A stretch of 39,641 bases of DNA from Eubacteriales bacterium (GTDB lineage: Bacteria; Bacillota; Clostridia; Oscillospirales; CAG-272). Shown piece after piece: positions 4,629 to 38,905 of this stretch. The DNA is taken from contig JAZRDX010000180.1 of the NCBI GenBank assembly GCA_045660565.1, positions 1 through 39,641 of the forward strand, given 5' to 3'. Within the stretch, counting starts at the first letter, position 1. Each line of letters opens with the position of its first letter. The notes beneath the pieces are model-generated. The model was not told the origin of the DNA. It saw only the letters and a program-made list of their open reading frames with translations, and did no database searches. The translations under genes and the position numbers were made by a program.

Positions 4629-4657
4629 TTGACAAAACGGTATGCTTATGTTATAAT
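4629..4657 (+). promoter_or_regulatory. Consensus sigma-A promoter of the T-box/paaK operon
   Basis: TTGACA (4629-4634), 17 nt, TATAAT (4652-4657), with an extended -10 TG. Confidence 0.88.
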
Positions 4658-4663
4658 AAAATA

Positions 4664-4959
4664 AATGCGTGAGAGCAAAGCGAGTAGCGTTATGTACTTA
4701 ACACAGAGAGCCGCCGTAAGGTGAAAGGGCGGAATAAGGAAAAACGTGAAGTTCTCTTTGCGAGCAGAGGCTTGGAAGCTTAGGTAAGTGTGTAAGAGCC
4801 TTCGGGAACTCCCGTTACAGAGAAACGGTATTTATTGTACCGATAAGGGCGTTTTCGTGAGAAAGCGCTAAACTGAGGTGGTACCACGGGGTATTTTTGT
4901 ATTTCGTCCTCTGTATCAAACGGCATAAGTGCCGACGGATTACAGAGGCTTTTCTTTTT
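4664..4959 (+). ncRNA. T-box riboswitch leader (transcriptional attenuator)
   Basis: Stem I with AGTA (4683), AGAGAG, GGTGAAA and GAA-GTTC specifier loop; CCGTTA/AACGG pseudoknot; T-box AACTGAGGTGGTACCACG (4871-4888); terminator CCTCTGTATC..GATTACAGAGG plus U tract. Confidence 0.93.
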
Positions 4960-5031
4960 CCGTTACGCACGTCTGCTGTAATCATATTAACGGATAAGAT
5001 TTTATCCTAGTACTGAAAGGATGCGCGAGAA

Positions 5032-6375
5032 ATGCGCAAATGGACTGCTGAAATGAAAGCACCGAAAACACACAACATTCTGTCGCCCGAATACGAATGT
5101 ATGTCGAGAGAGGCTCTGCGTGAGCTTCAGGGCAAGAGACTTCGCGAGGTGGTTAAGAGAGAGTACGACAACGTTCCTCTTTACCGTCAGCGTATGGATG
5201 AAAAGGGCATTAAGCCAGAGGATATAAAGAGCGTTGATGACCTCCGCTATCTGCCTTTTACAAATAAAACCGATCTTCGAGACGAATTTCCCTTTGGACT
5301 TCTTGCCGCTCCGAAAAGCGAGATAGTTAGAATCCAGGGCTCGTCGGGTACTACGGGAAAGCCTATCGTTTCCGGTTATACTCAGAACGACGTTGACGTA
5401 TGGACTGAAATGGTAGCCAGAGCTCTTACCGCCGCGGGCGGAACCAAAGAGGATATTATTCAGGTTTGCTACGGCTACGGACTGTTCACAGGCGGTCTTG
5501 GCGTACATCAGGGCGCAGGTAGGCTCGGAATGATGACTATACCTATGTCGAGCGGAAACACGGCGCGTCAGATAATGATGATGCGCGAGCTTGGCGCTAC
5601 CATGCTTTGCTGTACACCCTCTTACGCTACATATCTCGGTGAAACCATAAGAGAAATGGGACTTGATCCGAAAAAGGATTTAAAGCTTAAATCCGGATGC
5701 TTCGGTGCCGAGCCTTGGTCGGAGGAAATGCGCGCGAAGATAGAAGAGCTTCTTGAGATTGATGCCTGCGACATTTACGGTCTTACCGAAATAGCAGGTC
5801 CCGGCGTTGCGTTTGAGTGTCTTGAAAAGAACGGAATGCACGTAAACGAGGACCACGTAATTCCCGAAATTATCGATCCCGTTACAGAAGAGCCGCTTCC
5901 GTACGGAACGACCGGAGAGCTTGTATTTACCACGATAACCAAACAGGGTATGCCGATGCTCCGTTACCGTACGCACGACCTCTGCGTTCTTGACGCTACA
6001 CCCTGCGCGTGCGGAAGAACGACGGTAAGAATGGGAAGAATTACCGGAAGAACCGACGATATGATGGTTATTCGCGGCGTAAACGTTTTCCCGAGCCAGA
6101 TTGAATCTGTTATCGTTTCGGTTAAGGGCGTCGCTCCGTTCTATATGCTTATAGTTGACAGAGTAAACTCCACCGATACGCTTGAAATCCAGGTAGAGCT
6201 TGACGGTGAAAGCTTCACCGATACCGTTTCCGACCTTGAAAAAATCCGCAACGAGATAAGCGAAAAGATTAAGTCGGTTGTCGGTATTTCGGCAAAAATC
6301 ACTCTTGTTAACGCAAAATCCCTTCCTCGCTCCGAGGGAAAGGCAAAGCGCGTAATAGATAACCGCAAAATATAA
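5032..6375 (+). CDS. paaK: Phenylacetate--CoA ligase family protein
   Basis: SSGTTGKP P-loop, YGYGLFTGGLG, FGAEPWSEEMR, IYGLTE, RYRTHD, GRTDDMMVIRGVNVFPSQIE, GKAKRVID. Confidence 0.9.
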   Translation: MRKWTAEMKAPKTHNILSPEYECMSREALRELQGKRLREVVKREYDNVPLYRQRMDEKGIKPEDIKSVDDLRYLPFTNKTDLRDEFPFGLLAAPKSEIVRIQGSSGTTGKPIVSGYTQNDVDVWTEMVARALTAAGGTKEDIIQVCYGYGLFTGGLGVHQGAGRLGMMTIPMSSGNTARQIMMMRELGATMLCCTPSYATYLGETIREMGLDPKKDLKLKSGCFGAEPWSEEMRAKIEELLEIDACDIYGLTEIAGPGVAFECLEKNGMHVNEDHVIPEIIDPVTEEPLPYGTTGELVFTTITKQGMPMLRYRTHDLCVLDATPCACGRTTVRMGRITGRTDDMMVIRGVNVFPSQIESVIVSVKGVAPFYMLIVDRVNSTDTLEIQVELDGESFTDTVSDLEKIRNEISEKIKSVVGISAKITLVNAKSLPRSEGKAKRVIDNRKI

Positions 6376-6477
6376 GACGTCGGAAGGGTTGGCTGAAAAA
6401 AACGGTCAACGGAACGGCGGATATATTCAAAAGTGTTAATTTAATTTATTTTTCCACAGTCAGAAAGGAATATAAAA

Positions 6478-8208
6478 ATGAAAAAACTCCTTATAGGAAA
6501 CGAGGCGGTTGCCAGAGGTCTTTACGAGGGTGGAATAAACGTTGTTTCCAGCTACCCCGGAACACCTTCAACCGAAATCACGGAATTTTTATCAAAGTAT
6601 AACGACATTCATTCGGAATGGGCGCCCAACGAAAAGGTTGCTATGGAGGTCGCGTTCGGCGCGTCTCTCGCAGGTGCGCGTTCCGCGTGCGCTATGAAGC
6701 ACGTAGGTCTTAACGTGGCGGCGGACCCGCTGTTTACGCTTTCTTATACCGGTGTTACCGGAGGACTTGTAATCTGCGTCGCGGACGATCCCGCTATGCA
6801 TTCGTCTCAGAACGAGCAGGATTCCCGTCATTACGCCATTGCGGCTAAGATACCGATGCTTGAGCCTGCCGACTCTGAGGAAAGCTACCGCTTCGCAAAG
6901 GAAGCGTTCGCTCTTTCCGAGAAATTCGATACCCCGGTTCTTCTCCGTATGTGTACAAGAGTTGCTCACTCACAGAGTATAGTAGACATAGGCGAGCGCG
7001 AGGAGACACCGATAAAGGAATACGTTAAAAACGGAGCAAAGTACATAATGATGCCCGGTAACGCAAAGCTCCGCCACCCCATAGTTGAAAAGCGTACCGA
7101 GGATATTGCCCTTTATTCGGAGGATTGTCCTTTTAACAAGGTTGAAATGGGCGGAACGGATATAGGTATTATTACCTCGGGTAGCTGCTACCAGTACGTA
7201 AAGGAAGCTCTCGGAGATACGGTAAGCGTTCTTAAGCTCGGTATCGTTAATCCGCTTCCGAAAAAGCTTATTACTGACTTTGCCGCTAAGGTAAAGAGAC
7301 TCATCGTTATCGAGGAGCTTGACGGAATTATCGAAACTCACTGTAAGAATCTCGGACTTACCGTTGAGGGTAAGAGCCTTTTCTCACCGATCGGCGAGTA
7401 CAATCAGGCAACCGTTTCCGAGGTTATTCTCGGAAAAAAGAACGAGACTGTAAAGGTTTCCTCGGACATTCCGGTACGTCCTCCCATGATGTGCGCAGGC
7501 TGCCCTCACAGAGGTCTTTACTATGCGCTCGTTAAGAATAAGGTAACCGTTCTCGGAGACATCGGCTGCTATACGCTCGGCGCTGTTGCGCCCCTTGCCG
7601 CGCTTGACTCAACCCTCTGCATGGGTGCGTCTGTTTCCGGACTTCACGGCTTTAACATAGCCGACGGCGGAAAGCACAAGACAGCTTGTGTTATAGGCGA
7701 CTCCACCTTTATGCATTCGGGTGTTACAGGTCTTATCAACATAGCGTATAACGCAACAAACTCCACCGTAATCATACTTGATAACTCTATAACGGGTATG
7801 ACCGGACATCAGCAGAACCCCACTACGGGATATAACATCAAGGGCGAGCCCGCCGCTAAGGTAAATCTTGAGGACCTCTGCCGTTCGATAGGTATAAGAC
7901 GCGTAAGAGTAGTCGATCCCTACAATATTGCCGAATGCGACAAGGCGATAAAGGAGGAGACCGCGGTAGAGGAGCCTTCCGTTATCATTTCGAGACGCCC
8001 CTGCGTTCTTCTTAAGAGCGTAAAGGCAAAATCTCCCGTAACGGTTAATCCCGATAAGTGTAAGAGCTGCCGCAAGTGCATGACGCTCGGCTGTCCCGCA
8101 ATTTCGTTTAAGAACGGTAAGGCTGTAATCGACCACGTTCTCTGCGTTGGCTGCGACGTATGTAAGCAGCTTTGCGCCTTCGGAGCAATAGAAAGCGAGG
8201 AAAGATAA
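6478..8208 (+). CDS. iorA: Indolepyruvate (aryl-pyruvate):ferredoxin oxidoreductase alpha subunit
   Basis: YPGTPSTE, NEKVA, SSQNEQD, CAGCPHR, GDIGC, TPP motif GDSTFMHSG..DN, C-terminal 2x[4Fe-4S] Cys motifs. Confidence 0.93.
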   Translation: MKKLLIGNEAVARGLYEGGINVVSSYPGTPSTEITEFLSKYNDIHSEWAPNEKVAMEVAFGASLAGARSACAMKHVGLNVAADPLFTLSYTGVTGGLVICVADDPAMHSSQNEQDSRHYAIAAKIPMLEPADSEESYRFAKEAFALSEKFDTPVLLRMCTRVAHSQSIVDIGEREETPIKEYVKNGAKYIMMPGNAKLRHPIVEKRTEDIALYSEDCPFNKVEMGGTDIGIITSGSCYQYVKEALGDTVSVLKLGIVNPLPKKLITDFAAKVKRLIVIEELDGIIETHCKNLGLTVEGKSLFSPIGEYNQATVSEVILGKKNETVKVSSDIPVRPPMMCAGCPHRGLYYALVKNKVTVLGDIGCYTLGAVAPLAALDSTLCMGASVSGLHGFNIADGGKHKTACVIGDSTFMHSGVTGLINIAYNATNSTVIILDNSITGMTGHQQNPTTGYNIKGEPAAKVNLEDLCRSIGIRRVRVVDPYNIAECDKAIKEETAVEEPSVIISRRPCVLLKSVKAKSPVTVNPDKCKSCRKCMTLGCPAISFKNGKAVIDHVLCVGCDVCKQLCAFGAIESEER

Positions 8209-8783
8209 TGATGAAAACCACGAGTATAATGATAGTGGGAGTAGGCGGACAGGGAACCCTGCTCGCAAGTAAGCTCCTTGGAAAGCTCCTTCTCGGCGAA
8301 GGATATGACGTAAAGGTTTCCGAGGTACACGGAATGAGCCAGAGAGGCGGCTCCGTTGTAACCTACGTAAGATACGGAGATAAGGTTTATTCTCCCGTTA
8401 TAACCGACGGCGAGGCTGACTTTATCATTTCCTTTGAAAAGCTTGAGGCGGCGCGTTACATCTCCTGTCTTAAAAAGGACGGAAAGGTAATTGCCAACAA
8501 TCAGCAGACCGATCCCATGCCGGTAATTATAGGAAAGGCGGAGTATCCTACGGGAGTTCTTGATGAGATCAAAGCGCTCGGAGTATACGTTGACGAGCTT
8601 GACGCTCTTTCTCTTGCCGAAAAGGCGGGAAGCGCTAAGGCGGTTAACATCGTGCTTATGGGCAGACTTGCAAAGTATCTCGATATAGAAAAGGAAAAGT
8701 GGCTTAAGGCTATTGAGGTATCGGTTCCCGAAAAGTTTAAGGAGCTTAACTTAAAGGCGTTTGAGCTTGGCTACAATTTTTAA
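8208..8783 (+). CDS. iorB: Indolepyruvate:ferredoxin oxidoreductase beta subunit
   Basis: GVGGQG, SEVHGMSQRGGSV, NLKAFELG; the start overlaps the iorA stop (TAATG). Confidence 0.93.
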   Translation: MMKTTSIMIVGVGGQGTLLASKLLGKLLLGEGYDVKVSEVHGMSQRGGSVVTYVRYGDKVYSPVITDGEADFIISFEKLEAARYISCLKKDGKVIANNQQTDPMPVIIGKAEYPTGVLDEIKALGVYVDELDALSLAEKAGSAKAVNIVLMGRLAKYLDIEKEKWLKAIEVSVPEKFKELNLKAFELGYNF

Positions 8784-8866
8784 CAGATGTTAAAACGCGC
8801 CGTACGGGTGCGGATTAAAACATATATCTTTACTTTGAAAACGCTTTGAAAGAGAGGTAAAAAACA

Positions 8867-9292
8867 ATGACAGTACGTCAGATTTCTGTATTTATAGAAA
8901 ATAAGCCGGGTATGATGGTTAAAATAACCGACGCTCTCGGAAATGCGGGAGTAGATATAAGAGCTTTGTCTCTTGCAGATACTCAGGATTTCGGAATACT
9001 CCGTCTTATTGTAAACGATACTGACAAAGCGAGAGAGGCACTCAAGGAGGTAGGCTGTATAACCTCGGTTACCGACGTTATAGTAGCGGAGCTTCCCGAC
9101 GTTCCCGGAGCTATGACCAACACGGTAAGAATTCTTGCCGACCACGGAATAAACATCGAATACATTTATGCCTTTGTTTCACCGGAAAAAAATAAAAAAG
9201 CGTATATTGTTTTCAGAATCAAGGATACGGAAAAGGCGTCCGAGGTTCTTATCGGAGAGGGAATCATACTTGCCGGAGAGGGCGTAATTTAA
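8867..9292 (+). CDS. Tandem ACT-domain protein (Bt0572-like, amino acid binding)
   Basis: QISVFIENKPG, IRALSLADTQDFGILRLIV, PDVPG, INIEYIYAF; this family usually accompanies paaK/iorAB. Confidence 0.88.
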   Translation: MTVRQISVFIENKPGMMVKITDALGNAGVDIRALSLADTQDFGILRLIVNDTDKAREALKEVGCITSVTDVIVAELPDVPGAMTNTVRILADHGINIEYIYAFVSPEKNKKAYIVFRIKDTEKASEVLIGEGIILAGEGVI

Positions 9293-9322
9293 TTACCGTA
9301 CGCAGTTAGATATTCATATAAT

Positions 9323-9368
9323 AAAAGAGAGAACCTATCGGTTTAAAGCCGAAAGGTTCCCTCTTTTT
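9323..9368. terminator. Bidirectional intrinsic terminator between convergent genes
   Basis: AAAAGAGAGAACCTATCGG..CCGAAAGGTTCCCTCTTTTT inverted repeat with A and T tails. Confidence 0.8.
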
Positions 9369-9385
9369 GTTTTGCCGATTGCTTT

Positions 9386-27073: not shown

Positions 27074-30000
27074 ATGGCGGAAAAAACACTTCGCGAGCTG
27101 CTGAAAAGATACGAGCCGTCCTCGCTTCAGGGCGAGATAATCGACTCGGCAGGGAAATATACCTGTAAAGTGGACAAGCAGCGTAAAATAATGATAATAA
27201 AAGCCGATTTCCCGAGAATATATAAAAAAGCGGATATAAGACGGCTTGAAAACGAGATAAGAGTAGCTTACGGACTTAACTTCGTTCACGTCATTACCCA
27301 CTACGGAAAAGAATTTTTCAGGGATAATTACATAGACGAGCTTATGCAGGAGCTTGAATTCAGAAGTGCTGTCGCAAAGGGCTTTTTCTACGATTACGAC
27401 TATACTGTCGATAATGCAAATAACCGCGTAGAAATCAGAATAGGGTTTTCAAACGGAAGCATAGGTATTATGTATGACGAAAGAACTCCGATTATCGCTT
27501 CTGAAATTTTAAAGGACGAGTTTGACCTCGATTACAAGTTCGATATAATAAGAGACAGCGGAAAAGCGGAGAAGCTTCAAAGCAGAATGAATGAAATCCG
27601 CCGTAACGCGGAAGCTTCGGAGATACACGTAACGGCTACCGTGCCCGAAAGCGCGTCGGTAATGAAAAGCTGTCTCGGAACGAGAATGATTGGCGAAAAT
27701 ACGGTAGACAGCGGTAAAATGCGCTTTGATATAGGCGAGCGCACACTTATTTTCGGAGACGAATGTGAAATAAACGGCTTTGACGATATAGATAAGTCGG
27801 GAGTGCTTGACAGAAAGATAAAAACGCTTATAGGAAAGCTTTTCCCTATGGAAAGCAAGGAGGTCGGCAGAGGAAAAAAGCTTATTCTTTCCTTTGGTAT
27901 AACCAATAACGAGGCGTCTCTCCCCTGTAAGCTTGTAATGGAGATAGGAGAGGGTAAAAAGCTTTTCGATACTATTTCCGGTTGCCCCTACGTCATTATG
28001 AGAGGACTTATGGTCGAGGACAAGTTTTCAGGCGGAAACGAATTCCAGCCGTACACTCTTTACGAGGTGAAATCGCTTCCGACAAGAAAGGATAACGCCG
28101 AAAAGAAAAGGGTAGAGCTTCATCTCCATACCCAGCTTTCGCAGATGGACGCGCTTTCCGAGCCAAAGGCGGTGCTTAAGCTTGCAAAAGCGTTCGGACA
28201 CCCCGCGGTGGCGATAACCGACCATTCAAACCTTCAGGCATTTCCCCCCGCTATGGAATCGCTTAAAAAAATAGGTGGCGGAATAAAGATTTTATACGGA
28301 GTTGAGGTATATCTCGTTCACGATACCGCAAAGGCGGTTTTCGGAGATAAGGAATGTTCGCTCAGCGACGAGTTCACAGTATTCGATATAGAAACGACCG
28401 GACTTTCCTCGGTTACCGATAAAATCATCGAGATAGGCGCGGTAAGATGTAAGGACGGAAAGATCATAGATAAATTCGACACCTTTGTCGATCCCGAAAT
28501 GCCGATTCCCGATGAGATAGTAAAGCTTACCTCTATTACCGATGAAATGGTAAGCGGTGCGCCGAAGATAAAGGAAGCGCTTACTAAATTCCTTGAGTTT
28601 TGCGGCGACACAATGCTCGTCGCGCATAACGCGTCATTTGATACCGGCTTTATTCGTACAGCGTGCAATAAGTGCGACCTTCCGTTTAAGGCTACCTACC
28701 TTGATACGCTTGCAATGTCGAGATTTGTCAACGACGATCTGAAAAAGCATAATCTTGACGCGTTAAAGGAATACTTTAAGCTTCCCGATTTCCACCATCA
28801 CAGAGCGTCGGACGACGCGGAGATAACGGCGGAAATATTCCACCGTATGGTACTAAAGCTTAAAGAGGACGGAATAACCGATATAGCGTCAATGTCAAGA
28901 ACCATGGCAGACCGCTCCGATCCTAAAAAAATAAAGAACACTTATCACTGCATACTGCTCGCCAAAACGCAGGCAGGACTTAAAAATCTGTATAAAATAG
29001 TTTCAAAGAGCTATCTTGATTATTATTACTATAACGCCCGTGTGCCGAAAACACTGCTTAACGAATACCGTGAGGGTATTATAGTCGGTTCGGCGTGCGA
29101 GGCTGGAGAGCTTTTTAAGGCGGTAGTTGAAAATAAGCCCGACGAGGAGCTTAAAAAGATAGCGGAGTATTACGATTATCTTGAAATACAGCCGCTTTGT
29201 AATAACGCGTTTATGGTAGCAAAGGCTGAGGACGGAAAATATCCGCCGCTCGGTGATTACAGTGCGGAGGGCTTTGAAACGCTCCGTAACTTCAACCGTA
29301 AGATAGTGGCGCTCGGAGAAGAGCTCGGAAAGCCGGTCTGCGCAACCTGCGACTCGCATTTCCTTAACCCCGAGGACGAGATATACCGTCAGATACTTAA
29401 CCACGGCAAATATGCCGACGCGGACAGAGATACCGGACTTTATTTCAGAACCACCGAGGAGATGTTAAAGGAATTTGACTATCTCGGAGAAGAAAAAGCA
29501 TACGAGGTCGTTGTTGAAAACACGAACCTTATCGCCGATATGATTGACGGTGATATTCTTCCGATCCCGAAAGGAAGCTATACCCCTAAGATAGAGGGAG
29601 CACCCGAGGAGCTTCAGGAGATATGCTGGAAGCGTGCGCACGAATGGTACGGAGACGTGCTTCCGAAGGTCGTTGAGGACAGGCTTAACAGAGAGCTTAC
29701 CCCGATTATAGATAACGGCTTTGCCGTTCTTTATATGATCGCCCAGAAGCTTATAGCAAACAGCGAAAGTAAGGGATACCTCGTCGGTTCAAGAGGCTCG
29801 GTCGGCTCGTCCTTCGTTGCGACTATGGCGGGTGTGTCTGAGGTTAACCCCCTGCCCCCCCATTATCGTTGCCCGAAATGCCGTAACAGCGAATTCTTTA
29901 TGCACGGCGAGGTAGGCTCCGGCTTTGACCTTCCCGATAAGGACTGTCCGATATGCGGAACGAGATATATCTGCGACGGACACGAGATACCGTTTGAAAC

Positions 30001-31453
30001 CTTCCTCGGCTTTAAGGGTGAAAAATCGCCCGATATTGACCTTAACTTTTCGGGAGACGTTCAGGCGGACGCACATAAATACTGCGAGGTTCTTTTCGGT
30101 GCGGAAAACGTTTTCCGAGCCGGAACGCTCGGCTCCCTTGCCGATAAGACTGCTTTCGGTTTTGTCAAAAAGTATATGGAGGAGACGGGTAAAAACCTCA
30201 ATAAAGCGGAGGCGCAGCGCCTCGCGAACGGTTGCGTAGGAGTAAAGCGAACAACGGGACAGCACCCCGGAGGAATAGTCGTTATTCCGCACGAATACGA
30301 GATATACGACTTCACCCCCGTCCAGCACCCTGCGGACGATCCCAACTCCAGCATTGTTACTACCCATTTCGACTTTAACCATCTGCACGATACCATACTT
30401 AAGCTTGACTGTCTCGGACACGATGTGCCGACCAAGTACGTCTACATGGAGCGCTTTTCCGGAGTGAAAATTGCGGATATACCCATGAACGACAGAAAGG
30501 TCTACGATTTACTTTTAACACCTGAACCGCTCGGAGTAACCCCCGAGGAGATAGATTCGGAAACGGGAACGTTCGGACTTCCCGAGCTCGGCACGTCATT
30601 CGTTCGTCAGATGCTTATTGACGCACAGCCTAAGACCTTTTCCGACCTGCTTCACATCTCGGGACTTTCTCACGGAACGGGAGTTTGGCTCGGTAACGCG
30701 AAGGATTTAATAGCAAACGGAACCTGTACCATTTCAGAATGTGTCGGAACGCGAGACTCTATAATGGTTTACCTTATCCATGCGGGGCTTCCGCCGGGAG
30801 ACGCGTTTAATATAATGGAGACGGTACGTAAAAAGAATAAATTCTTATCCCCTGAGCAGATCGCGATAATGCGTGAGCACAACGTCCCCGAATGGTACAT
30901 AGATTCCTGTAACAAGATAGAATACATGTTCCCGAAGGCGCACGCGGTCGCTTACGATATTTCCGCGATAAGACTCGGCTGGTATAAGGTTTACTATCCG
31001 GTAGCCTTCTATGCCGCGATGTTTACCGTCGCTCCGGGAGGCTTTGACGGAGAGATAGCCATTCGCGGAAAGGAATACGTTAGAAATCAGATAAAAGAGA
31101 TAAATGATAAGGGAAAAGAGGCTACGGCAGCGGAAAAGGATATGATTCCGATATGGCAGCTCGTAGTTGAATTTTACGCGAGAGGCTTCAGCTTCCTGCC
31201 CGTTGACCTTTATAAATCGAAAGCTAAGATTTTCCAGCCCGACGGAGACAGAATAAGAATACCGTTCTCGGTGCTTCCGGGACTCGGCGTCAAGGCGGCG
31301 GAAAGTATAGAAGCCGTTGCGGCTGAGGGAGAGATACTCTCAATAGAGGAGCTTGCGCAGAAGAGCAAGATTTCCAAAACTCATATTGAGATACTTAAGA
31401 GAAACCACGTCCTTGACGGTCTTAACGATACCAACCAGATGAGGTTTTTCTAA
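27074..31453 (+). CDS. polC: DNA polymerase III PolC
   Basis: PHP domain (ELHLHT, ITDH), embedded DEDDh exonuclease (FDIETTG, AHNASFD, HRASDDA), GSRGSVGSS, Zn finger, PDIDLNFS, YMFPKAHA. Confidence 0.98.
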   Translation: MAEKTLRELLKRYEPSSLQGEIIDSAGKYTCKVDKQRKIMIIKADFPRIYKKADIRRLENEIRVAYGLNFVHVITHYGKEFFRDNYIDELMQELEFRSAVAKGFFYDYDYTVDNANNRVEIRIGFSNGSIGIMYDERTPIIASEILKDEFDLDYKFDIIRDSGKAEKLQSRMNEIRRNAEASEIHVTATVPESASVMKSCLGTRMIGENTVDSGKMRFDIGERTLIFGDECEINGFDDIDKSGVLDRKIKTLIGKLFPMESKEVGRGKKLILSFGITNNEASLPCKLVMEIGEGKKLFDTISGCPYVIMRGLMVEDKFSGGNEFQPYTLYEVKSLPTRKDNAEKKRVELHLHTQLSQMDALSEPKAVLKLAKAFGHPAVAITDHSNLQAFPPAMESLKKIGGGIKILYGVEVYLVHDTAKAVFGDKECSLSDEFTVFDIETTGLSSVTDKIIEIGAVRCKDGKIIDKFDTFVDPEMPIPDEIVKLTSITDEMVSGAPKIKEALTKFLEFCGDTMLVAHNASFDTGFIRTACNKCDLPFKATYLDTLAMSRFVNDDLKKHNLDALKEYFKLPDFHHHRASDDAEITAEIFHRMVLKLKEDGITDIASMSRTMADRSDPKKIKNTYHCILLAKTQAGLKNLYKIVSKSYLDYYYYNARVPKTLLNEYREGIIVGSACEAGELFKAVVENKPDEELKKIAEYYDYLEIQPLCNNAFMVAKAEDGKYPPLGDYSAEGFETLRNFNRKIVALGEELGKPVCATCDSHFLNPEDEIYRQILNHGKYADADRDTGLYFRTTEEMLKEFDYLGEEKAYEVVVENTNLIADMIDGDILPIPKGSYTPKIEGAPEELQEICWKRAHEWYGDVLPKVVEDRLNRELTPIIDNGFAVLYMIAQKLIANSESKGYLVGSRGSVGSSFVATMAGVSEVNPLPPHYRCPKCRNSEFFMHGEVGSGFDLPDKDCPICGTRYICDGHEIPFETFLGFKGEKSPDIDLNFSGDVQADAHKYCEVLFGAENVFRAGTLGSLADKTAFGFVKKYMEETGKNLNKAEAQRLANGCVGVKRTTGQHPGGIVVIPHEYEIYDFTPVQHPADDPNSSIVTTHFDFNHLHDTILKLDCLGHDVPTKYVYMERFSGVKIADIPMNDRKVYDLLLTPEPLGVTPEEIDSETGTFGLPELGTSFVRQMLIDAQPKTFSDLLHISGLSHGTGVWLGNAKDLIANGTCTISECVGTRDSIMVYLIHAGLPPGDAFNIMETVRKKNKFLSPEQIAIMREHNVPEWYIDSCNKIEYMFPKAHAVAYDISAIRLGWYKVYYPVAFYAAMFTVAPGGFDGEIAIRGKEYVRNQIKEINDKGKEATAAEKDMIPIWQLVVEFYARGFSFLPVDLYKSKAKIFQPDGDRIRIPFSVLPGLGVKAAESIEAVAAEGEILSIEELAQKSKISKTHIEILKRNHVLDGLNDTNQMRFF

Positions 31454-31648: not shown

Positions 31649-32800
31649 ATGTCCGGAAATATAAGAAATATACCAAACGGAACAAGAGATATAATGTTCG
31701 AGGAAGCGGAGCTTTTCAGAAGCCTTGAGAGAAGACTTAGCGAGCTTTACGTTAAAAGAGGGTTTGCCGAGATAATGACACCAGCTATCGAATATTATGA
31801 CGTTTTTGAAACGGCAAGTACGATGTCGCAGGAGGAGATGTACAAGCTTACCTCTCCCGACGGACGTCTTTTAGTGCTTCGCGCGGATAACACCACACCG
31901 ATAGCGAGAGCGGCGGCGTCAAGACTTTCGGAGCATATTCCGACAAAGCTCTTTTATCACCAGAAGGTTTACAGACTCAGCTACGGAAATAAGGGAAGAA
32001 AGAGCGAGATAGCGCAGAGCGGAGTTGAAATACTCGGCTGCGGCGGACTTCAGAGCGACCTTGTCTGCCTTATTACCGCTATTGAAACTCTGTCAAAGGT
32101 AAGCGATGACTACAAGCTTGAGCTTGGACACGTAGGCTTTTATAACGCGCTTATCTCCGAATGCTCCCTTGAAGAGGGTGAGGCGGAAAAAATAAGACGT
32201 CTCGTAGAAGCAAAAGACGTAAATAAGATTTCCGGACTTGACGCAATAAAGAAGATCCCGTTCCTTTTTGGAGGCGAGGAGGTCTTTAAGGAGGCGGAAA
32301 AGCTCGCCAACGGTAACGAAAAGGCTATGGCGGCGCTTTCTTATCTTGAAAAGCTGTACGGAGCGCTCTGCACAGCAGGATATAAGGATAAAATTATGAT
32401 CGACCTCGGAATAGTTCATTCCCTTGACTACTACACGGGCTGCGTTTTCAGAGGATATATGGACGGAGCGGGCGAACCCGTTCTCGCGGGCGGAAGATAC
32501 GATACGCTTATCAGTAAGTTTGCAAGCGACATTCCCGCAACAGGCTTCGGTGTGAATATCAGCGAGATAGCCGAAACGCTTATCCGCAAATCTGCTCCCG
32601 AAAAGAAGAACATCGGAGAGCTCGTGGCTTTTGATGAAATCAGCTTCGGAGACGCGCTTGACTACGTAAATACCGTAAGCGGTGCCGTTCTGTCTCATAT
32701 AAGCGGAGAAAAGGAAAACCTTGAATACGCGGTGAAGAACGGAGCAGAGGCGCTTGTTGTTTTTGAAAACGGTGAAAAGAAAGTAATCGGACTGAAGTAA
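31649..32800 (+). CDS. hisZ: ATP phosphoribosyltransferase regulatory subunit
   Basis: PNGTRD, TPAIEYYDVF, LRADNTTPIAR, QSGVE, YYTG, GGRYD; precedes a short hisG. Confidence 0.95.
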   Translation: MSGNIRNIPNGTRDIMFEEAELFRSLERRLSELYVKRGFAEIMTPAIEYYDVFETASTMSQEEMYKLTSPDGRLLVLRADNTTPIARAAASRLSEHIPTKLFYHQKVYRLSYGNKGRKSEIAQSGVEILGCGGLQSDLVCLITAIETLSKVSDDYKLELGHVGFYNALISECSLEEGEAEKIRRLVEAKDVNKISGLDAIKKIPFLFGGEEVFKEAEKLANGNEKAMAALSYLEKLYGALCTAGYKDKIMIDLGIVHSLDYYTGCVFRGYMDGAGEPVLAGGRYDTLISKFASDIPATGFGVNISEIAETLIRKSAPEKKNIGELVAFDEISFGDALDYVNTVSGAVLSHISGEKENLEYAVKNGAEALVVFENGEKKVIGLK

Positions 32801-32835
32801 AATAAATCTAAATTCCGCAGAGAGGAAAAAGAAAA

Positions 32836-33483
32836 ATGTTAAGACTTGCTCTTACAAAAGGAAGAATTGAGAAAAAGGCTCTTGAATATCTCGCAAAAGC
32901 GGGATACGACGTATCGGAGCTTGACGAAGATAAAAAGGGAAGAAAGCTGCTTTTTAAAGTAGGCGATAATATCGAGGTGGTGCTTGCAAAGGCGGCGGAC
33001 GTTATAACCTACGTTGAACACGGAGTATGCGACGGCGGTATAGTCGGAGAAGATACCATAATGGAGGCTAAGGCTTCGATATACGAGCTCCTTGACCTTG
33101 AGTTTGGTAAATGCCGTTTCGCGCTTGCGGGAATAAAGGGAAAGAACTTTTATGACGGATACGGACATAAGATAATCGCATCGAAATATCCGAGCGTTAC
33201 AAAGGATTACTTTGACGGCAAGGGTGTTGACGTTGAGGTTGTTAAAATTGAGGGAAGCGTCGAGCTTGCCCCTATTCTTAAGCTTTCCGACGCGATAGTT
33301 GATATAGTTGAAACGGGTTCAACGCTTAAGGCTAACGGACTTGAGGTTTACGAGGACGTCGCACAGATTTCCGCAAGATTTATCGCAAATATTTCAAGTA
33401 TAAAGATGAAAAAAGCGGAATTTGATACGCTTATAGGCGCGCTCGGCGAGGTCGTTAAGTCGGAGAGAAAAGAAAACGCTTAA
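32836..33483 (+). CDS. hisG: ATP phosphoribosyltransferase (short form)
   Basis: ALTKGRI, DVITYVEHG, GSVELAP..DAIVDIVETGSTLKANGL. Confidence 0.97.
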   Translation: MLRLALTKGRIEKKALEYLAKAGYDVSELDEDKKGRKLLFKVGDNIEVVLAKAADVITYVEHGVCDGGIVGEDTIMEAKASIYELLDLEFGKCRFALAGIKGKNFYDGYGHKIIASKYPSVTKDYFDGKGVDVEVVKIEGSVELAPILKLSDAIVDIVETGSTLKANGLEVYEDVAQISARFIANISSIKMKKAEFDTLIGALGEVVKSERKENA

Positions 33484-33564
33484 GGCTTTAGCTTAGGCTT
33501 TGTTTAATAAAAAGGAACGTTTAAAATTTGTATGCTGCCATGTTGGCAGCAGATTGGAGAAAAA

Positions 33565-34836
33565 ATGTTTAAGGTTTATACAAAGGAAACCGTAGGCTCT
33601 CTTATTGAGCTTTTAAAGAAAAGAGCCGACAGCGATAACGCTGAGGTTGAAAAGATAGTTAAAGGTATTCTCGCCGAGGTTAAGCAAAACGGAGATAAGG
33701 CGCTTTTTGAATACAGCGAAAAGATAGATAAGGTAAAGCTTTCATCGCTTAGAATAAGTGATGAAGAAAAAGCGGAGGCGATAGCTAAGGTTCCCGCAGA
33801 GCTTAAAGAGGCAATGAAGCGCGCGGCTGATAACATCTTCGCTTTCCACGAAAAGCAGAAGACGCAGAGCTGGATCGATAACAGAGACGGAAAGATAATG
33901 GGACAGCGCGTCCTTCCGCTTAAAAGAGTTGGACTTTACGTTCCCGGCGGTACGGCGGCATACCCCTCGTCCGTTCTTATGAACGCAATACCGGCAAAGG
34001 TGGCGGGTGTTGAAAGCATCGTAATGGTAACACCCCCGAAGGCAGAGGGAATTAACCCAGCAGTTATATATGCGGCACAGCTCGCAGGTGTTGAGGATAT
34101 AGTAACGGTCGGAGGCGCGCAGGCGGTAGCGGCTCTTGCTTACGGAACGGAAAGCATACCGCAGGTTGACAAAATCGTTGGACCGGGTAATATATTCGTT
34201 GCCACGGCAAAGAGACTTGTAGCGGGCACCGTTGATATAGATATGTTTGCGGGACCGAGCGAGGTTCTGGTTATTGCCGATGAAAAGGCTAACCCCGCTT
34301 ACGTAGCGGCTGACTTTATGAGCCAGGCGGAGCACGATCCGATAGCGGCTTCAATACTTGTAACCACGTCCGAAAAGCTCGTTAATGACGTTCAGGCAGA
34401 GATAGAAAAACAGCTTACATACCTTTCGAGAGCGGAGATAATCAAAAAGTCTCTCGCGTCTTACGGCTCGGCGGTAATAATGGATAACCTTGACGAGGCG
34501 GCGGAAATTTCCGATAAGATAGCTCCCGAGCATCTTGAGCTTATGGTAGAAAATCCCTTCGAGCTTCTCGGAAAGGTGAGAAACGCAGGCTCTGTATTCC
34601 TCGGAGAAAACTCTCCCGAGCCGCTCGGAGACTACTACGCGGGACCTAACCACGTTCTGCCCACGAACGGAACGGCGAGATTTTCCTCGGCGCTTTCGGT
34701 TGATAGCTTCGTAAAGAAATCAAGCTATCTCTACTATTCGAAGGAAGCACTTGCAAAGGCGGCAGACGATATTATAAGATTTGCAAAGGCGGAGGGACTT
34801 ACCGCTCACGCAAATTCCATAGAGGTAAGAAAATGA
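33565..34836 (+). CDS. hisD: Histidinol dehydrogenase
   Basis: [48 protein letters not shown]; ATG 33565 after GGAG. Confidence 0.97.
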
Positions 34837-35891
34837 ATAAGCTGATACCCGAAAGAGTAGAACGTATGCAGGAATACATTCCCGATACGTCCTGCCCGAA
34901 AATAAAGCTTGACGCAAACGAGAGCCCGTATGAAACGCCCGAAAGCGTTATGAAAGCGATCGGCAAAGCGGTAAGCTTTGAGAATATAAACAGATACCCC
35001 GATCCCGATATGACCGAAATGCTTACCGCATACGGAAAATACGTCGGAGCGGAGAAGGAAAGACTTGTCGCGGGAGACGGCTCGGACGAGCTTATCGCGC
35101 TGATAATCAATACCTTTCTTGCCGATGGGGGTAAGATAGTTATATGCGAACCCGATTTTTCAATGTACCGCTTTTATTCCGAGTTTTCGGGACAAGAGAT
35201 AGTAAGCTACAAGAAAAAGGACGGAATGGATATAGATTTTACCGAGCTTACCGAGCTTTGCAAAAAGGAAAACGCGGGGCTTGTTATTATATCTAATCCG
35301 TGTAACCCGACGGGGGTTATGTACGACAGAAAAACGCTTCTTGACTTTACCGACAGCGTAGATGCGGTGGTGGTTATAGACGAGGCGTATATGGAGTTTT
35401 CCCGTAAGAACGAAAGCGTTATACCGGAAACCGCCGAAAAAAAGAATCTTATAGTCCTTAAAACGGTATCAAAAATAGGACTTGCGGGGCTTCGCTGCGG
35501 CTTTGCGGTATCGAACAGAGAGCTTATCTCGGCACTGAAAAAGACTAAAAGCCCGTACAATATGAACAGTATTACGCAGGCGGCGGTCGCGGCGGCGATG
35601 GGTGAGTTTTCGGCATTTCGGGAAAATATAGAAAAAATAAAGGACGGGGTAAGCTATCTTTACGGTGAGCTTAAGCCCCTTGAAGAAAAGCTCGGCTTTT
35701 CTCTCAGAGAAAGTAACGCAAACTTTGTTTTCTTACGCTTTGACAAAAAAGAGGACGGACTTAAGGTAGCGGAGCTTTTAAGAAAAAATGATATTTCGGT
35801 AAGGTTTACCGGCGGCGGTATGAGAATAACCGCGGGAAAACCCGAAGAGAACGAGGCTTTTGTAAAAGAATTTAAAAGCATTAGCTTATAA
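34833..35891 (+). CDS. hisC: Histidinol-phosphate aminotransferase
   Basis: LDANESP, NRYPD, GSDELI, NPCNPTG, DEAY, TVSK(PLP Lys)..GLAGLRCG. Confidence 0.93.
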   Translation: MNKLIPERVERMQEYIPDTSCPKIKLDANESPYETPESVMKAIGKAVSFENINRYPDPDMTEMLTAYGKYVGAEKERLVAGDGSDELIALIINTFLADGGKIVICEPDFSMYRFYSEFSGQEIVSYKKKDGMDIDFTELTELCKKENAGLVIISNPCNPTGVMYDRKTLLDFTDSVDAVVVIDEAYMEFSRKNESVIPETAEKKNLIVLKTVSKIGLAGLRCGFAVSNRELISALKKTKSPYNMNSITQAAVAAAMGEFSAFRENIEKIKDGVSYLYGELKPLEEKLGFSLRESNANFVFLRFDKKEDGLKVAELLRKNDISVRFTGGGMRITAGKPEENEAFVKEFKSISL

Positions 35892-35906
35892 TAAGGAGAA
35901 AATAAA

Positions 35907-36488
35907 ATGAGAACAGCGGAAAAGGTCAGAACCACAAAGGAAACGGATATAAAAATGTCGCTTACCCTTGACGCCGAAAAAGGTGGACTTAGCGGAAGCA
36001 GCGGCATCGGTTTTTTTGATCACATGTTAAATTCCTTCTGCGTACACGGCGGCTTTAACGTGAGTCTTGAAATGAAGGGAGACCTGCACGTTGACGGTCA
36101 TCACAGTGTAGAGGACGTCGGTATAGTTTTCGGCTCTCTTTTTGCCGAAGTGCTTAAGAATAAAGGCGGTATAAAACGCTTCGGTTTTTCCTATGTTCCT
36201 ATGGACGAGGCGCTCGCCTTTGCGGCTATCGACATAAGCGGCAGACCGTTCCTTGCTTATAACGTTCCGCTTACCGCGGCTACGGTAGGGGATTACGACG
36301 CCCAGCTTACTGAGGAATTTATGCGCGCGCTTGCGGTTAATATGGGTGCAACGCTCCACGTAAGACTTGAGTACGGTATTAACGAGCATCATATAACCGA
36401 AGCCGTTTATAAGGCTGTTGCGAGAGCGGTAAAGGAAGCGGTAGTACCGAACGGTGGCGGTGTTCTTTCGGCTAAGGGAGTGCTGTAA
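35907..36488 (+). CDS. hisB: Imidazoleglycerol-phosphate dehydratase
   Basis: RTTKETDI, GFFDHML, DGHHSVED, PMDE, NEHHITE. Confidence 0.97.
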   Translation: MRTAEKVRTTKETDIKMSLTLDAEKGGLSGSSGIGFFDHMLNSFCVHGGFNVSLEMKGDLHVDGHHSVEDVGIVFGSLFAEVLKNKGGIKRFGFSYVPMDEALAFAAIDISGRPFLAYNVPLTAATVGDYDAQLTEEFMRALAVNMGATLHVRLEYGINEHHITEAVYKAVARAVKEAVVPNGGGVLSAKGVL

Positions 36489-36495
36489 TTATATT

Positions 36496-36561
36496 AGTGA
36501 ATAATGAAAAATGAATAGTGAAGAATGAATAATTAATGTTGATTTTCGTAAAGCGAAAATC
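36496..36561 (+). repeat. Six tandem heptamers plus a hairpin
   Basis: AGTGAAT AATGAAA AATGAAT AGTGAAG AATGAAT AATTAAT (36496-36537), then GATTTTCG-TAAAG-CGAAAATC. Confidence 0.8.
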
Positions 36562-36643
36562 TTTGTTTGAAAGACTGCTGAGAGCATTCCGGCTTTCGGA
36601 CTTAAAACGAAATCACTTCACTAAAAAGCGGAGCAATTTTAAA

Positions 36644-37264
36644 ATGAAAAAAATAGGTATTATAGACTATGGAATGGGTAATCTCCATTCGGTAGAAAAC
36701 GCGCTTAAATATATAGGACTTTCGTCCTTCATTTCAAACGATAAAGCCGAGCTTTCACGCGCCGACGGACTTATACTGCCGGGCGTGGGTGCGTTTCCCG
36801 ACGCCATAGAGCTGCTAAGTAACCTTTCCTTTCCGCAGTTTATAAGAGAGGAAACGGCAAAAAAACCGCTTCTCGGCATCTGCCTCGGTATGCAGCTTCT
36901 TTTTGAAAAAAGCTACGAGTTTAAAGAGAGCGACGGGCTGGGGTACATAAAAGGAAGCGTAGTAAGACTTAAAGCGGGACAGACGGATAAAACCTACAAA
37001 ATTCCGCATATCGGATATAACGGGATAAAGAAGATCAACGGTTGCCCCCTGCTTGACGGTATCGACGACGGAACCTGCTTTTACTTCGTTCATTCGTATA
37101 TGGGCGAGTGCACTGACCGTGCGCAGCTTGTCGCAACCACGGAGTACGGAGAGGACGTAACGGCGATTGTAAGCAGCGGAAACGTTTACGGAACGCAGTT
37201 CCACCCCGAAAAAAGCGGAGAGGCGGGACTTACGCTTCTTAAAAACTTCGGGAAAATTCTTTAA
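36644..37264 (+). CDS. hisH: Imidazole glycerol phosphate synthase, glutaminase subunit
   Basis: IIDYGMGNL, LPGVGAF, GICLGMQ, YFVHSY, QFHPEKS; ATG 36644 after GGAG. Confidence 0.97.
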   Translation: MKKIGIIDYGMGNLHSVENALKYIGLSSFISNDKAELSRADGLILPGVGAFPDAIELLSNLSFPQFIREETAKKPLLGICLGMQLLFEKSYEFKESDGLGYIKGSVVRLKAGQTDKTYKIPHIGYNGIKKINGCPLLDGIDDGTCFYFVHSYMGECTDRAQLVATTEYGEDVTAIVSSGNVYGTQFHPEKSGEAGLTLLKNFGKIL

Positions 37265-37360
37265 GCGGTTTCCACTTTGAATTTGTGGTAACGGAAGTCG
37301 GATTAAAATAAATGAAAAAGCGCCGCAGGGAGATTTCACAGCGGCGGTACGGAGAGAAAA

Positions 37361-38074
37361 ATGATCATTTTACCTGCGATAGATATACTTGACGGAAAAG
37401 CGGTAAGGCTTTATCAGGGAGCCTACGAAACCGCTGAAAAGGTTGCCGAGGACCCGTTCCTTGCCGCCAAAAGATTTGAAGAGGCGGGAGCGGAGTACCT
37501 TCATCTCGTTGACCTTTCTGGCGCAAAGTCGGGAAGCACCGACGGTTGGGAGCTGATAACAGCCATTGCCCGCTCGGTTGGTATGAAAACCGAGGTCGGC
37601 GGCGGTATCCGTTCAATGGAGACAATAAAAAGCTACCTTGAAAACGGTGTTGACAGAGTTATACTCGGAACGGCGGCTATAAACAATAAAGCGCTTCTTT
37701 CAGAGGCAGTGTCAGCTTACGGAGACAGAATTATTGTCGGTATCGATGCAAGAAACGGTAAGGTAAGCGTTTCTGGCTGGACGAGCGATTCCGACATTGA
37801 TTACATTGACCTTGCCAAGGAATGCGAGAACATAGGGGTGAAAAACATTATTTTCACCGATATAAGCCGCGACGGCTCACTTAAAGGCCCTAACCTTGAT
37901 ATGCTTAAAAAGCTTTCGGAGAGTGTAAGCTGTGATATAACGGCGTCAGGCGGAATAAAGAGCATCGACGATATAATAGCGCTTCGTAAAATGAACCTCT
38001 ATGGCGCAATATGCGGAAAATCGCTGTACAGCGGTACGCTTAGCCTTGCCGAGGCTCTTGAAAAGGCAAGATAA
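37361..38074 (+). CDS. hisA: ProFAR isomerase
   Basis: ILPAIDI..AVRLYQG, LHLVDL, EVGGGIRS, TDISRDG, ASGGI. Confidence 0.97.
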   Translation: MIILPAIDILDGKAVRLYQGAYETAEKVAEDPFLAAKRFEEAGAEYLHLVDLSGAKSGSTDGWELITAIARSVGMKTEVGGGIRSMETIKSYLENGVDRVILGTAAINNKALLSEAVSAYGDRIIVGIDARNGKVSVSGWTSDSDIDYIDLAKECENIGVKNIIFTDISRDGSLKGPNLDMLKKLSESVSCDITASGGIKSIDDIIALRKMNLYGAICGKSLYSGTLSLAEALEKAR

Positions 38075-38149
38075 GCGATATGAGGTTTTCGGGAGTAACC
38101 GTAAATCTCTGAACTAAAGAATTTATTTCAAAAACTAAGGATTCAGAAA

Positions 38150-38905
38150 ATGATAACCAAAAGAATAATACCCTGCCTTGACGTAAAAAACGGCAGAGTT
38201 GTTAAAGGAACTAATTTCGTAAATCTGCGCGACGCGGGAGATCCCGTCGAAGCGGCGAGACTTTATAACGAGCAGGGCGCGGACGAGCTTGTTTTTCTTG
38301 ATATAACCGCCTCAAACGAGGAAAGAAAAACCATAGTAGACGTCGTTGAAAGAACGGCAAGAGAGGTGTTTATGCCCCTTACCGTCGGCGGCGGTATCAG
38401 AAGCGTTGAGGATTTCCGTACCATACTCCTTGCGGGGGCCGATAAGGTAGCGGTAAACTCTGCGGCGGTTAAGGATAAGTATCTTCTCTCACGCGCGGCG
38501 GATAAATTCGGTAATCAGTGCGTTGTAATTGCCATTGACGCAAAAAAGACGGACGAGGGCTTCCACGTATTTATAAACGGCGGAAGAATTGATACGGGAA
38601 TAGACGCTATCGAATGGGCGCGGGAAGCGGAAAAGCTCGGTGCGGGTGAGATACTGCTTACGAGTATGGACGCTGACGGAACCAAGGCGGGCTTTGATAT
38701 TGCTCTTACGAGAGCGGTAACAGACGCGGTAAATATACCGGTAATAGCATCGGGCGGCGGCGGCGCTTTACAGCACTTTAAGACGGTGTTTGACGAGGCG
38801 CACGCGGATGCGGCGCTTGCGGCATCTCTGTTCCATTATAAGGAGCTTACCGTTGGTCAGGTAAAGGATTATCTTGCAGAGTGTAATATACCGGTAAGAA
38901 GATAA
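38150..38905 (+). CDS. hisF: Imidazole glycerol phosphate synthase, cyclase subunit
   Basis: [49 protein letters not shown]. Confidence 0.98.

Follow-up and report, generated by a model that had tools for sequence, protein, structure and literature searches.

The window analysed here is a stretch of 39,641 nucleotides (nt) of contig JAZRDX010000180.1 (assembly GCA_045660565.1), from a genome of ~2 Mb that is 91.6% complete. On its forward strand, positions 4629-9369 form one sharply bounded transcription unit, made of a promoter, a T-box leader, the genes paaK, iorA and iorB, a gene for a tandem-ACT protein, and a terminator. A first-pass annotation, made from the letters of the DNA, had placed each of these elements here, and every one of them was present at the coordinates it gave. 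We think it likely that this unit is a four-gene operon for the salvage of phenylacetate, gated by a T-box attenuator specific for phenylalanine (Phe).

The unit opened with a sigma-70-type promoter (4629-4657) that fitted the consensus at 12 of 12 positions, with a -35 box TTGACA (4629-4634), a 17-nt spacer and an extended -10 box TGnTATAAT (TATAAT at 4652-4657). Promoter-like sites showed no enrichment as a class in this region, with 9 observed versus 9.7 expected from shuffles; only two reached 12/12, one heading the operon and the other heading the downstream aldose-1-epimerase gene. At the other end, an intrinsic terminator (9323-9369) closed the operon with a hairpin and a U-run, at -23.3 kcal/mol and z -6.9, a stability that 0 of 200 shuffles equalled. 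This hairpin was overlooked by a simple terminator scan and recovered by folding against shuffles.

T-boxes switch genes on when their tRNA is uncharged. The leader behind the promoter (4661-4959) had the anatomy of such an element: a Stem I with a specifier loop, a Stem II/III region, the T-box sequence, and an antiterminator and a terminator. A search with the Rfam T-box model RF00230, as the first-pass annotation had suggested, matched 4661-4914 over the full model (1-219) at 103.3 bits; the gathering score is 93, and the E value was 6.5e-22 in the window and 7.9e-24 in a whole-genome search. This was the sole Rfam match at gathering score across the 39.6-kb window. The conserved T-box sequence lay at 4871-4889, with the antiterminator bulge UGGU at 4879-4882, and the leader terminator at 4908-4959, where the hairpin CCUCUGUA...UACAGAGG (4908-4948) is followed by CUUUUCUUUUU (U-run 4949-4959). 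Both alternative folds were recovered. The antiterminator fold (4872-4916) pairs GAGG with CCUC, and the same CCUC is used by the 5' arm of the terminator, which overlaps the 3' arm of the antiterminator; the 91-nt terminator fold had an energy of -27.9 kcal/mol and a z of -2.8.

The Phe codon UUC was found at 4752-4754, on the 3' side of the specifier loop, in the arrangement GAA-G-UUC-U, ending 1 nt before the base helix CUUUGC (4756-4761) that pairs with GCAAAG (4675-4680). Since the loop, GAAGUUCU, contains GUU as well as UUC, the specifier was decided by comparison with homologous leaders. UUC was invariant in 22 of 22 paaK leaders (that of the window and 21 from the survey of relatives described below) and stood 1 nt before the base helix in each of them, except for L017, where the distance was 2 nt. 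Its context varied, with GAA, GAA-G, CCA or CCU on the 5' side and U, C, A or G as the 3' base. The helix beneath it covaried, taking at least nine different sequences across the 22 leaders that were all still complementary. In the same genome, the pheST leader had the same loop format, GAA-U-UUC-G, and the valS leader read GAA-G-GUC-G by eye. The genome's own tRNA-Phe(GAA) (G000:C166:3254-3329) ends in ...GGCA-CCA, and its A73-CCA is complementary to the UGGU at 4879-4882. The invariance of UUC over a covarying helix, its recurrence in the pheST leader and the fit of tRNA-Phe(GAA) to UGGU thus indicate that the specifier is Phe. Incidentally, ARAGORN called a second, 88-nt 'tRNA-Phe (aaa)' at G000:C28:3322-3409, which looks like a false positive and is possibly a piece of another structured RNA.

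The T-box could instead have decayed or become constitutive, or it could sense another tRNA, such as tRNA-Val via the overlapping GUU, in which case it would be uninformative on Phe. That GUU indeed lies within GAAGUUCU, and the Rfam score is just 10 bits over the gathering score. Furthermore, the textbook T-box rule places a purine directly 3' of the specifier codon, and the base found there is a U (4755); a pyrimidine occupies this place in 14 of the 22 leaders (L015-L165 and the window), and we regard it as a variant of this family that would not disqualify the T-box assignment. Against a Val specifier, most homologous leaders read GAA-UUC directly, without the preceding G, so that GUU is missing from them and UUC is the invariant triplet; GUU was rejected on this ground. 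Likewise, terminator, antiterminator and UGGU are intact and the promoter is a perfect consensus, none of which fits decay. We hold a leader that is decayed or reads another tRNA to be extremely unlikely.

Downstream of this leader, paaK (5032-6375) encodes a PaaK-family AMP-forming aryl-acetate-coenzyme A (CoA) ligase of 447 residues, matching PF00501 (AMP-binding) and PF14535 (AMP-binding_C_2). An alternative start exists at M8, and relatives align from residue 8-14. Its closest solved structures, aligned over the full length, are phenylacetate-CoA ligases: 2y4o (E 9e-129), 2y27 (E 9e-127) and 4r1l (E 9e-121). The next gene, iorA (6478-8208), encodes the 576-residue alpha subunit of an indolepyruvate (arylpyruvate):ferredoxin oxidoreductase (IOR), at 721.3 versus 650.9 bits for TIGR03336, with thiamine pyrophosphate domains and a C-terminal 4Fe-4S motif. 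The beta subunit gene iorB (8208-8783; NF005325, 282.4 versus 230 bits) probably starts with an ATG at 8208 that overlaps the stop codon of iorA (TAATG), in a reading frame open from a TTG at 8172. Both paaK and iorAB are single copy in the genome.

The last gene (8867-9292) encodes a tandem-ACT protein of 141 residues (PF19571, ACT_8, 103.4 versus 23.5 bits, E 1.2e-29), in which two PF01842 stretches and the glycine loops ENKPG and PDVPGA were recognised. In an alignment of 34 sequences, E11, N12 and G15 were invariant in the glycine-containing loops. The sole solved relative, PDB 2f06 (E 1e-25), bears no functional name. A homologue of this protein adjoins paaK at 56 of the 80 loci in the first set surveyed below and at all 29 of the second. 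A predicted complex of ACT protein and PaaK scored 0.33, the best of three controls scoring 0.00, and gave weak support to an interaction: the runs agreed in at least 93% of contacts, with a partner pLDDT (predicted local distance difference test) of at least 84. Of 80 solved complexes, 58 reach the mark used for such predictions, as do 2 of 110 mismatched pairs; at scores of 0.60 or below, only 7 of those 80 complexes reach it, plus both passing mismatches. The tandem-ACT protein is likely an amino-acid-sensing regulatory partner that acts on the ligase.

In which direction would such a pathway run? PaaK-family ligases belong to the ANL superfamily, whose members form AMP and work towards the thioester. 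The reverse use of the genes would be catabolic, taking phenylpyruvate derived from Phe to phenylacetyl-CoA and phenylacetate in a fermentation, or else starting the degradation of phenylacetate. By the usual annotation, paaK and iorAB are degradative genes, the T-box is absent at most paaK/iorAB loci, so that other family members could well have a catabolic role, and IOR was first described in peptide fermentation, according to PMC5817080. However, a T-box for Phe on Phe-destroying genes would be self-defeating, since Phe would be broken down during Phe starvation, whereas on Phe-making genes it follows the normal logic of these switches. The ligase forms AMP, and no energy would be conserved. 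In this 91.6% complete genome, no ATP-grasp_5 match above cut-off, and hence no ADP-forming acyl-CoA synthetase, was found, nor was there any match to the PaaA/PaaC ring-oxygenase families, which leaves phenylacetyl-CoA without an obvious aerobic degradative fate. Because of the T-box logic, of an AMP-forming ligase and of these absences, the anabolic direction, from phenylacetate via phenylacetyl-CoA and phenylpyruvate to Phe, appears to be the best explanation of the operon; we infer the direction of flux, the substrate of the ligase and the function of the T-box from sequence. A catabolic role for this operon seems to us very unlikely.

The most telling point for the anabolic direction, in our judgement, came from other T-box ligases of the same genome. 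We counted nine T-boxes there, of which three besides that of paaK head genes for AMP-forming ligases; the others precede pheST, valS, aspS-gatCAB, a leuA-like and a trpB-like gene. A Val (GUA) T-box with a 12/12 promoter heads a string of genes on the minus strand, one strand throughout (G000:C60:5329-12373, locus L012), in the order helix-turn-helix (HTH)-cupin-MbcS-like ligase (762 residues), P-loop protein, VorB-type alpha, beta and gamma subunits, and IlvE. The best NCBIfam model for the ligase was MbcS, a branched short-chain acyl-CoA synthetase, at 428 bits, below the cut-off of 850; VorB scored 535 versus 399 and IlvE 476 versus 307. After the string come a Leu (CUC) T-box and a leuA-like gene. 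As read from the sequence, the string is a complete route from acid to CoA-ester, 2-oxoacid and amino acid, including the aminotransferase that is absent from the Phe operon, and it would amount to a full isobutyrate-to-valine route under tRNA-Val control. An Ile (AUC) T-box (G000:C60:23720-26998, locus L013) is followed by a paralogous HTH-cupin-ligase fusion of 754 residues and an isochorismatase-family gene. It is unusual for an acyl-CoA ligase to be fused to an XRE-type HTH and a cupin domain. A Tyr (UAC) T-box (G000:C42:1-875, locus L004) heads the reading frame of a FadD-like AMP-binding ligase, cut by the contig end, which is a candidate 4-hydroxyphenylacetate ligase.

These arrangements were found in relatives too. 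In the same taxonomic order, 105 of 151 genomes matched the MbcS-like ligase at E 1e-40 or below, and a T-box preceded the ligase in 26 of 29 fetched loci (GUA 17, AUC 9), with a recurrent layout of Ile-ligase, Val T-box, Val-ligase, P-loop gene and vorA. Detection depended on the model: at gathering score, Rfam gave 5 T-boxes in 20 Val/Ile ligase loci, and a profile built with nhmmer from 7 leaders gave 27 matches, in 26 of the 29 loci; the Val and Ile ligase leaders of the window's own genome, at 80.9 and 86.3 bits, are themselves under the Rfam gathering score. In one relative (L021:1552-3501), the Tyr T-box ligase directly precedes the Phe T-box and paaK-iorAB-ACT, and in another (L049:1827-3735) it lies upstream of paaK-ACT. 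The Phe operon would then be one of several T-box-gated modules for acid salvage, with Val and Ile served by MbcS-like ligases and Tyr by the FadD-like one. Elsewhere in the genome, specifiers read by eye gave a Trp (UGG) T-box before a 470-residue TrpB-like reading frame (G000:C9:22452-22698) and an Asn (AAC) T-box before aspS and gatCAB-like genes (G000:C78:176-429).

The Tyr ligase also bears on the possibility that the operon has a broader or different substrate, such as 4-hydroxyphenylacetate, indole-3-acetate or phenylpropionate-derived acids, and serves general salvage of aromatic amino acids or another need linked to Phe. IOR enzymes accept several arylpyruvates, and the genome has a single iorAB, yet the Tyr T-box ligase would need an oxidoreductase as well. 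PaaK itself scored 554.2 bits against the TIGR02155 equivalog, below the cut-off of 646.3, so that its substrate could be another aryl- or alkyl-acetate; it is for this reason that we file it as PaaK-family and treat phenylacetate as its presumed substrate. In addition, many relatives carry two PaaK paralogues around iorAB. Nevertheless, all 22 leaders of this PaaK orthologue group have UUC and never UGG or UAC, Tyr has a T-box and a ligase of its own, and the closest solved structures are ligases of phenylacetate. We consider a broader or different substrate rather unlikely.

The distribution of the Phe leader was evaluated in two sets of relatives that share no locus. One genome per species gave 80 paaK loci (set 1), and 150 genomes of the window's taxonomic order gave 29 further ones (set 2). 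A T-box lay upstream of paaK, directly or via a PaaI-like hotdog gene, in 17 of the 80 set-1 loci; 11 of these leaders scored at or above the Rfam gathering score and the others were found with an nhmmer profile. Set 2 contained such a leader at 4 of its 29 loci. Phe T-box control of paaK thus recurs in several lineages of Clostridia, but most paaK/iorAB loci are without a T-box. The gene order of the window, paaK-iorA-iorB-ACT, was found in 7 of the 80 loci, with a T-box in 6 of the 7. Within the taxonomic order of the window, the commonest layout was iorA-iorB-paaK-ACT (18 of 29 loci); none of the 18 yielded a T-box, although the 5' end of the operon lies outside the fetched DNA wherever iorA is cut. 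The nearest public records are gut and rumen metagenome bins.

A few loci had features of their own. In a Syntrophomonas-labelled bin, two tandem T-box leaders stand upstream of paaK-ACT (L022:3558-3968). Four loci (L050, L053, L054 and L058) have a second, divergent class of Phe T-box leader upstream of paaK, and in three of the four a gene for a PaaI-like hotdog thioesterase lies between this leader and paaK-ACT; the thioesterase may release CoA from thioesters made in error. We also looked at the genes beside the T-box-less iorAB of L105 (G004:C7) and L107 (G001:C26). In one of the two, iorAB is accompanied by genes for a second PaaK paralogue, a second ACT protein and a 503-residue membrane protein that by eye resembles a symporter; in the other, a HisC-like aminotransferase is encoded two genes ahead of iorAB.

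We then turn to what the rest of the genome offers for this route. The first-pass annotation had described the operon as bypassing the chorismate route and had suggested a check for missing genes of that route (aro, pheA). They are not missing: a bifunctional chorismate mutase-prephenate dehydratase (CM-PDT), chorismate synthase (AroC) and an AroB-like reading frame were found on C126, and 3-deoxy-D-arabino-heptulosonate 7-phosphate (DAHP) synthase and an AroA-like gene (262.6 bits, under the cut-off of 287) on C60, so that a missing chorismate pathway is ruled out. The anabolic reading itself was upheld by the UUC specifier, the match of tRNA-Phe and the parallel with Val, Ile and Tyr, with the direction of flux still deduced; a qualification concerns the bypass, as the operon would run beside the chorismate route. 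Since that route is kept, the operon would be a starvation-induced supplement and no replacement. Among five other genomes with a T-box upstream of paaK, prephenate dehydratase (PDT) turned up in 3, chorismate synthase in 4, and neither of them in G005, whose completeness is not given.

It had also been stated that the operon contains no aminotransferase gene, and this held: none is encoded there. Six matches to the Aminotran_1_2 family (class I/II) were found in the genome, including HisC in the window (34833-35891; TIGR01141, 284.5 versus 276.55 bits), which might serve the salvage route as its aromatic aminotransferase, and IlvE lies on C60. A ligase, an IOR and an aminotransferase, by which we would recognise an aryl-acid route to Phe, are therefore all present in one genome. 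A pyruvate:ferredoxin oxidoreductase is there as a source of reduced ferredoxin.

On these grounds, we propose the following mechanism for the operon. Uncharged tRNA-Phe(GAA) would pair through its anticodon with the UUC of the specifier loop and through its free A73-CCA with the UGGU of the antiterminator bulge, pairings that were computed. The tRNA-bound antiterminator would then be favoured over the terminator at 4908-4959, and RNA polymerase would read into paaK-iorA-iorB-ACT. PaaK would turn phenylacetate of gut or rumen origin into phenylacetyl-CoA, at the expense of ATP going to AMP and pyrophosphate. IorAB, acting in the synthase direction, would join phenylacetyl-CoA and CO2 with the help of reduced ferredoxin to give phenylpyruvate. 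An aminotransferase encoded elsewhere, for which HisC in the window, IlvE on C60 and the other Aminotran_1_2-family members among the six matches are candidates, would complete the path to Phe. The tandem-ACT protein would most likely sense a small molecule, Phe, and act post-translationally on PaaK.

Several observations weigh against this proposal, and to the pyrimidine behind the specifier, the equivalog score of PaaK and the weakness of the ACT-PaaK prediction the following have to be added. The de novo route to Phe is present, and salvage is not needed for prototrophy. The operon holds neither an aminotransferase gene nor one for a phenylacetate transporter. In the survey, 63 of 80 and 25 of 29 paaK loci were without a T-box. 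One locus with the gene order of the window (L019) lacks the T-box and has a short leader behind a plain promoter in its place. Finally, in the five other genomes with a T-box-paaK-ACT arrangement, iorAB lies elsewhere, with no T-box detected in range by a home-made nhmmer profile that can miss weak leaders; in these genomes, only the ATP-consuming committed step appears to be under T-box control. As loci without a T-box are in the majority, the anabolic inference is limited to the T-box-bearing subset of paaK/iorAB loci.

The lack of an aminotransferase gene in the operon is also the sole hint, and no direct support, for the notion that phenylacetyl-CoA or phenylpyruvate is made for a non-protein product, such as a secondary metabolite or a signal. 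The genes around the operon do not speak for it, since no biosynthetic genes were found among the annotated neighbours. Upstream lie genes for HPr and UvrC, on the opposite strand, and downstream a small reverse-strand reading frame and the aldose epimerase gene, all of them unrelated to the operon. Besides, the T-box logic ties expression to the charging of tRNA-Phe. A non-protein product is, to us, scarcely credible. Further along, the window holds PolC (27074-31453) and a histidine operon with hisZ, G, D, C, B, H, A and F (31649-38905).

The conserved pattern for Val, Ile and Tyr adds interest beyond the single operon. We are evenly divided on a wider proposal, namely that gut and rumen Clostridia carry T-box-gated 'reverse fermentation' modules, in which an uncharged tRNA turns on a ligase for the fermentation end-product of its own amino acid and the resulting thioesters feed IOR or VOR (2-ketoisovalerate:ferredoxin oxidoreductase) acting as CO2-fixing synthases, with ACT or HTH-cupin parts as extra sensors. 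Under that proposal, Phe would be rebuilt from phenylacetate, Val from isobutyrate and Ile from 2-methylbutyrate, with 4-hydroxyphenylacetate as the probable starting acid for Tyr. If true, the modules would supply the genes and the regulation so far missing for the classic reductive carboxylations of the rumen, and the bacteria that carry them would act in the gut as sinks, induced by starvation, for phenylacetate and branched-chain acids. This has a practical side, in that metagenome models of gut and rumen count paaK, iorAB and vorABC as catabolic, and a Phe, Tyr, Val or Ile T-box upstream would be a sequence-level marker of the reverse direction. Phenylacetate is a precursor of host phenylacetylglutamine, and the operon points to specific bacteria as its consumers.

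The locus combines a known RNA switch with known enzyme families, in such a way that the usual annotation is reversed. We found no published link of T-box leaders to paaK, iorAB, phenylacetate or operons of acyl-CoA ligases and 2-oxoacid:ferredoxin oxidoreductases in the full-text literature searched, a coverage outside which the main T-box surveys, RegPrecise and supplements fall, so that an earlier listing is possible. With canonical T-box regulons, which comprise synthetase, biosynthesis and transporter genes, the operon shares the RNA family, the specifier/UGGN logic and the terminator/antiterminator switch. It is unlike them in that the genes controlled are those of a ligase and a 2-oxoacid:ferredoxin oxidoreductase, usually annotated as degradative, and in the frequent pyrimidine after the codon. 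The known regulon of synthetases, de novo biosynthesis and transporters would thereby be widened to salvage by reductive carboxylation.

Among systems with similar enzymes, the fermentative IOR of the Thermococcales type belongs to the same oxidoreductase family; in the part of PMC5817080 that deals with it, it runs in the opposite direction, and its partner is an ADP-forming acyl-CoA synthetase that conserves ATP, whereas the partner here is an AMP-forming ligase. A Geobacter iorAB-paaK operon with a conserved 5' sequence is listed under 'tryptophan' biosynthesis operons in the section of PMC2700814 that covers it. It has the same gene trio, already read as biosynthetic, and a conserved leader; it differs in its order (iorAB-paaK) and its amino acid (Trp), and that section reserves the term T-box for leuA and makes no mention of an ACT gene. 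For Methanococcus maripaludis, PMC4162585 describes, after Porat et al., an IOR-dependent aryl-acid route to aromatic amino acids, in which, as we propose here, an IorAB-type enzyme works in the synthase direction and exogenous aryl acids become arylpyruvates and then amino acids, beside the de novo pathway. The present system differs in being bacterial, in uniting ligase, IOR and ACT protein in one operon, and in its Phe-specific T-box. The archaeal system is not known to be under T-box control.

A precedent with the same chemistry and habitat is found in rumen anaerobes, in which Allison (1962, 1965; as cited in PMC7356843) described how phenylacetate is converted to Phe, and branched-chain acids to Leu, Val and Ile, by reductive carboxylation. 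The reaction proposed for our operon is of this kind. As far as that source recounts them, the rumen studies were physiological, and the literature searched yielded no genes or regulation assigned to them; to such conversions of phenylacetate and branched-chain acids, described in rumen bacteria some 60 years ago, the present locus adds candidate genes and a regulatory logic.

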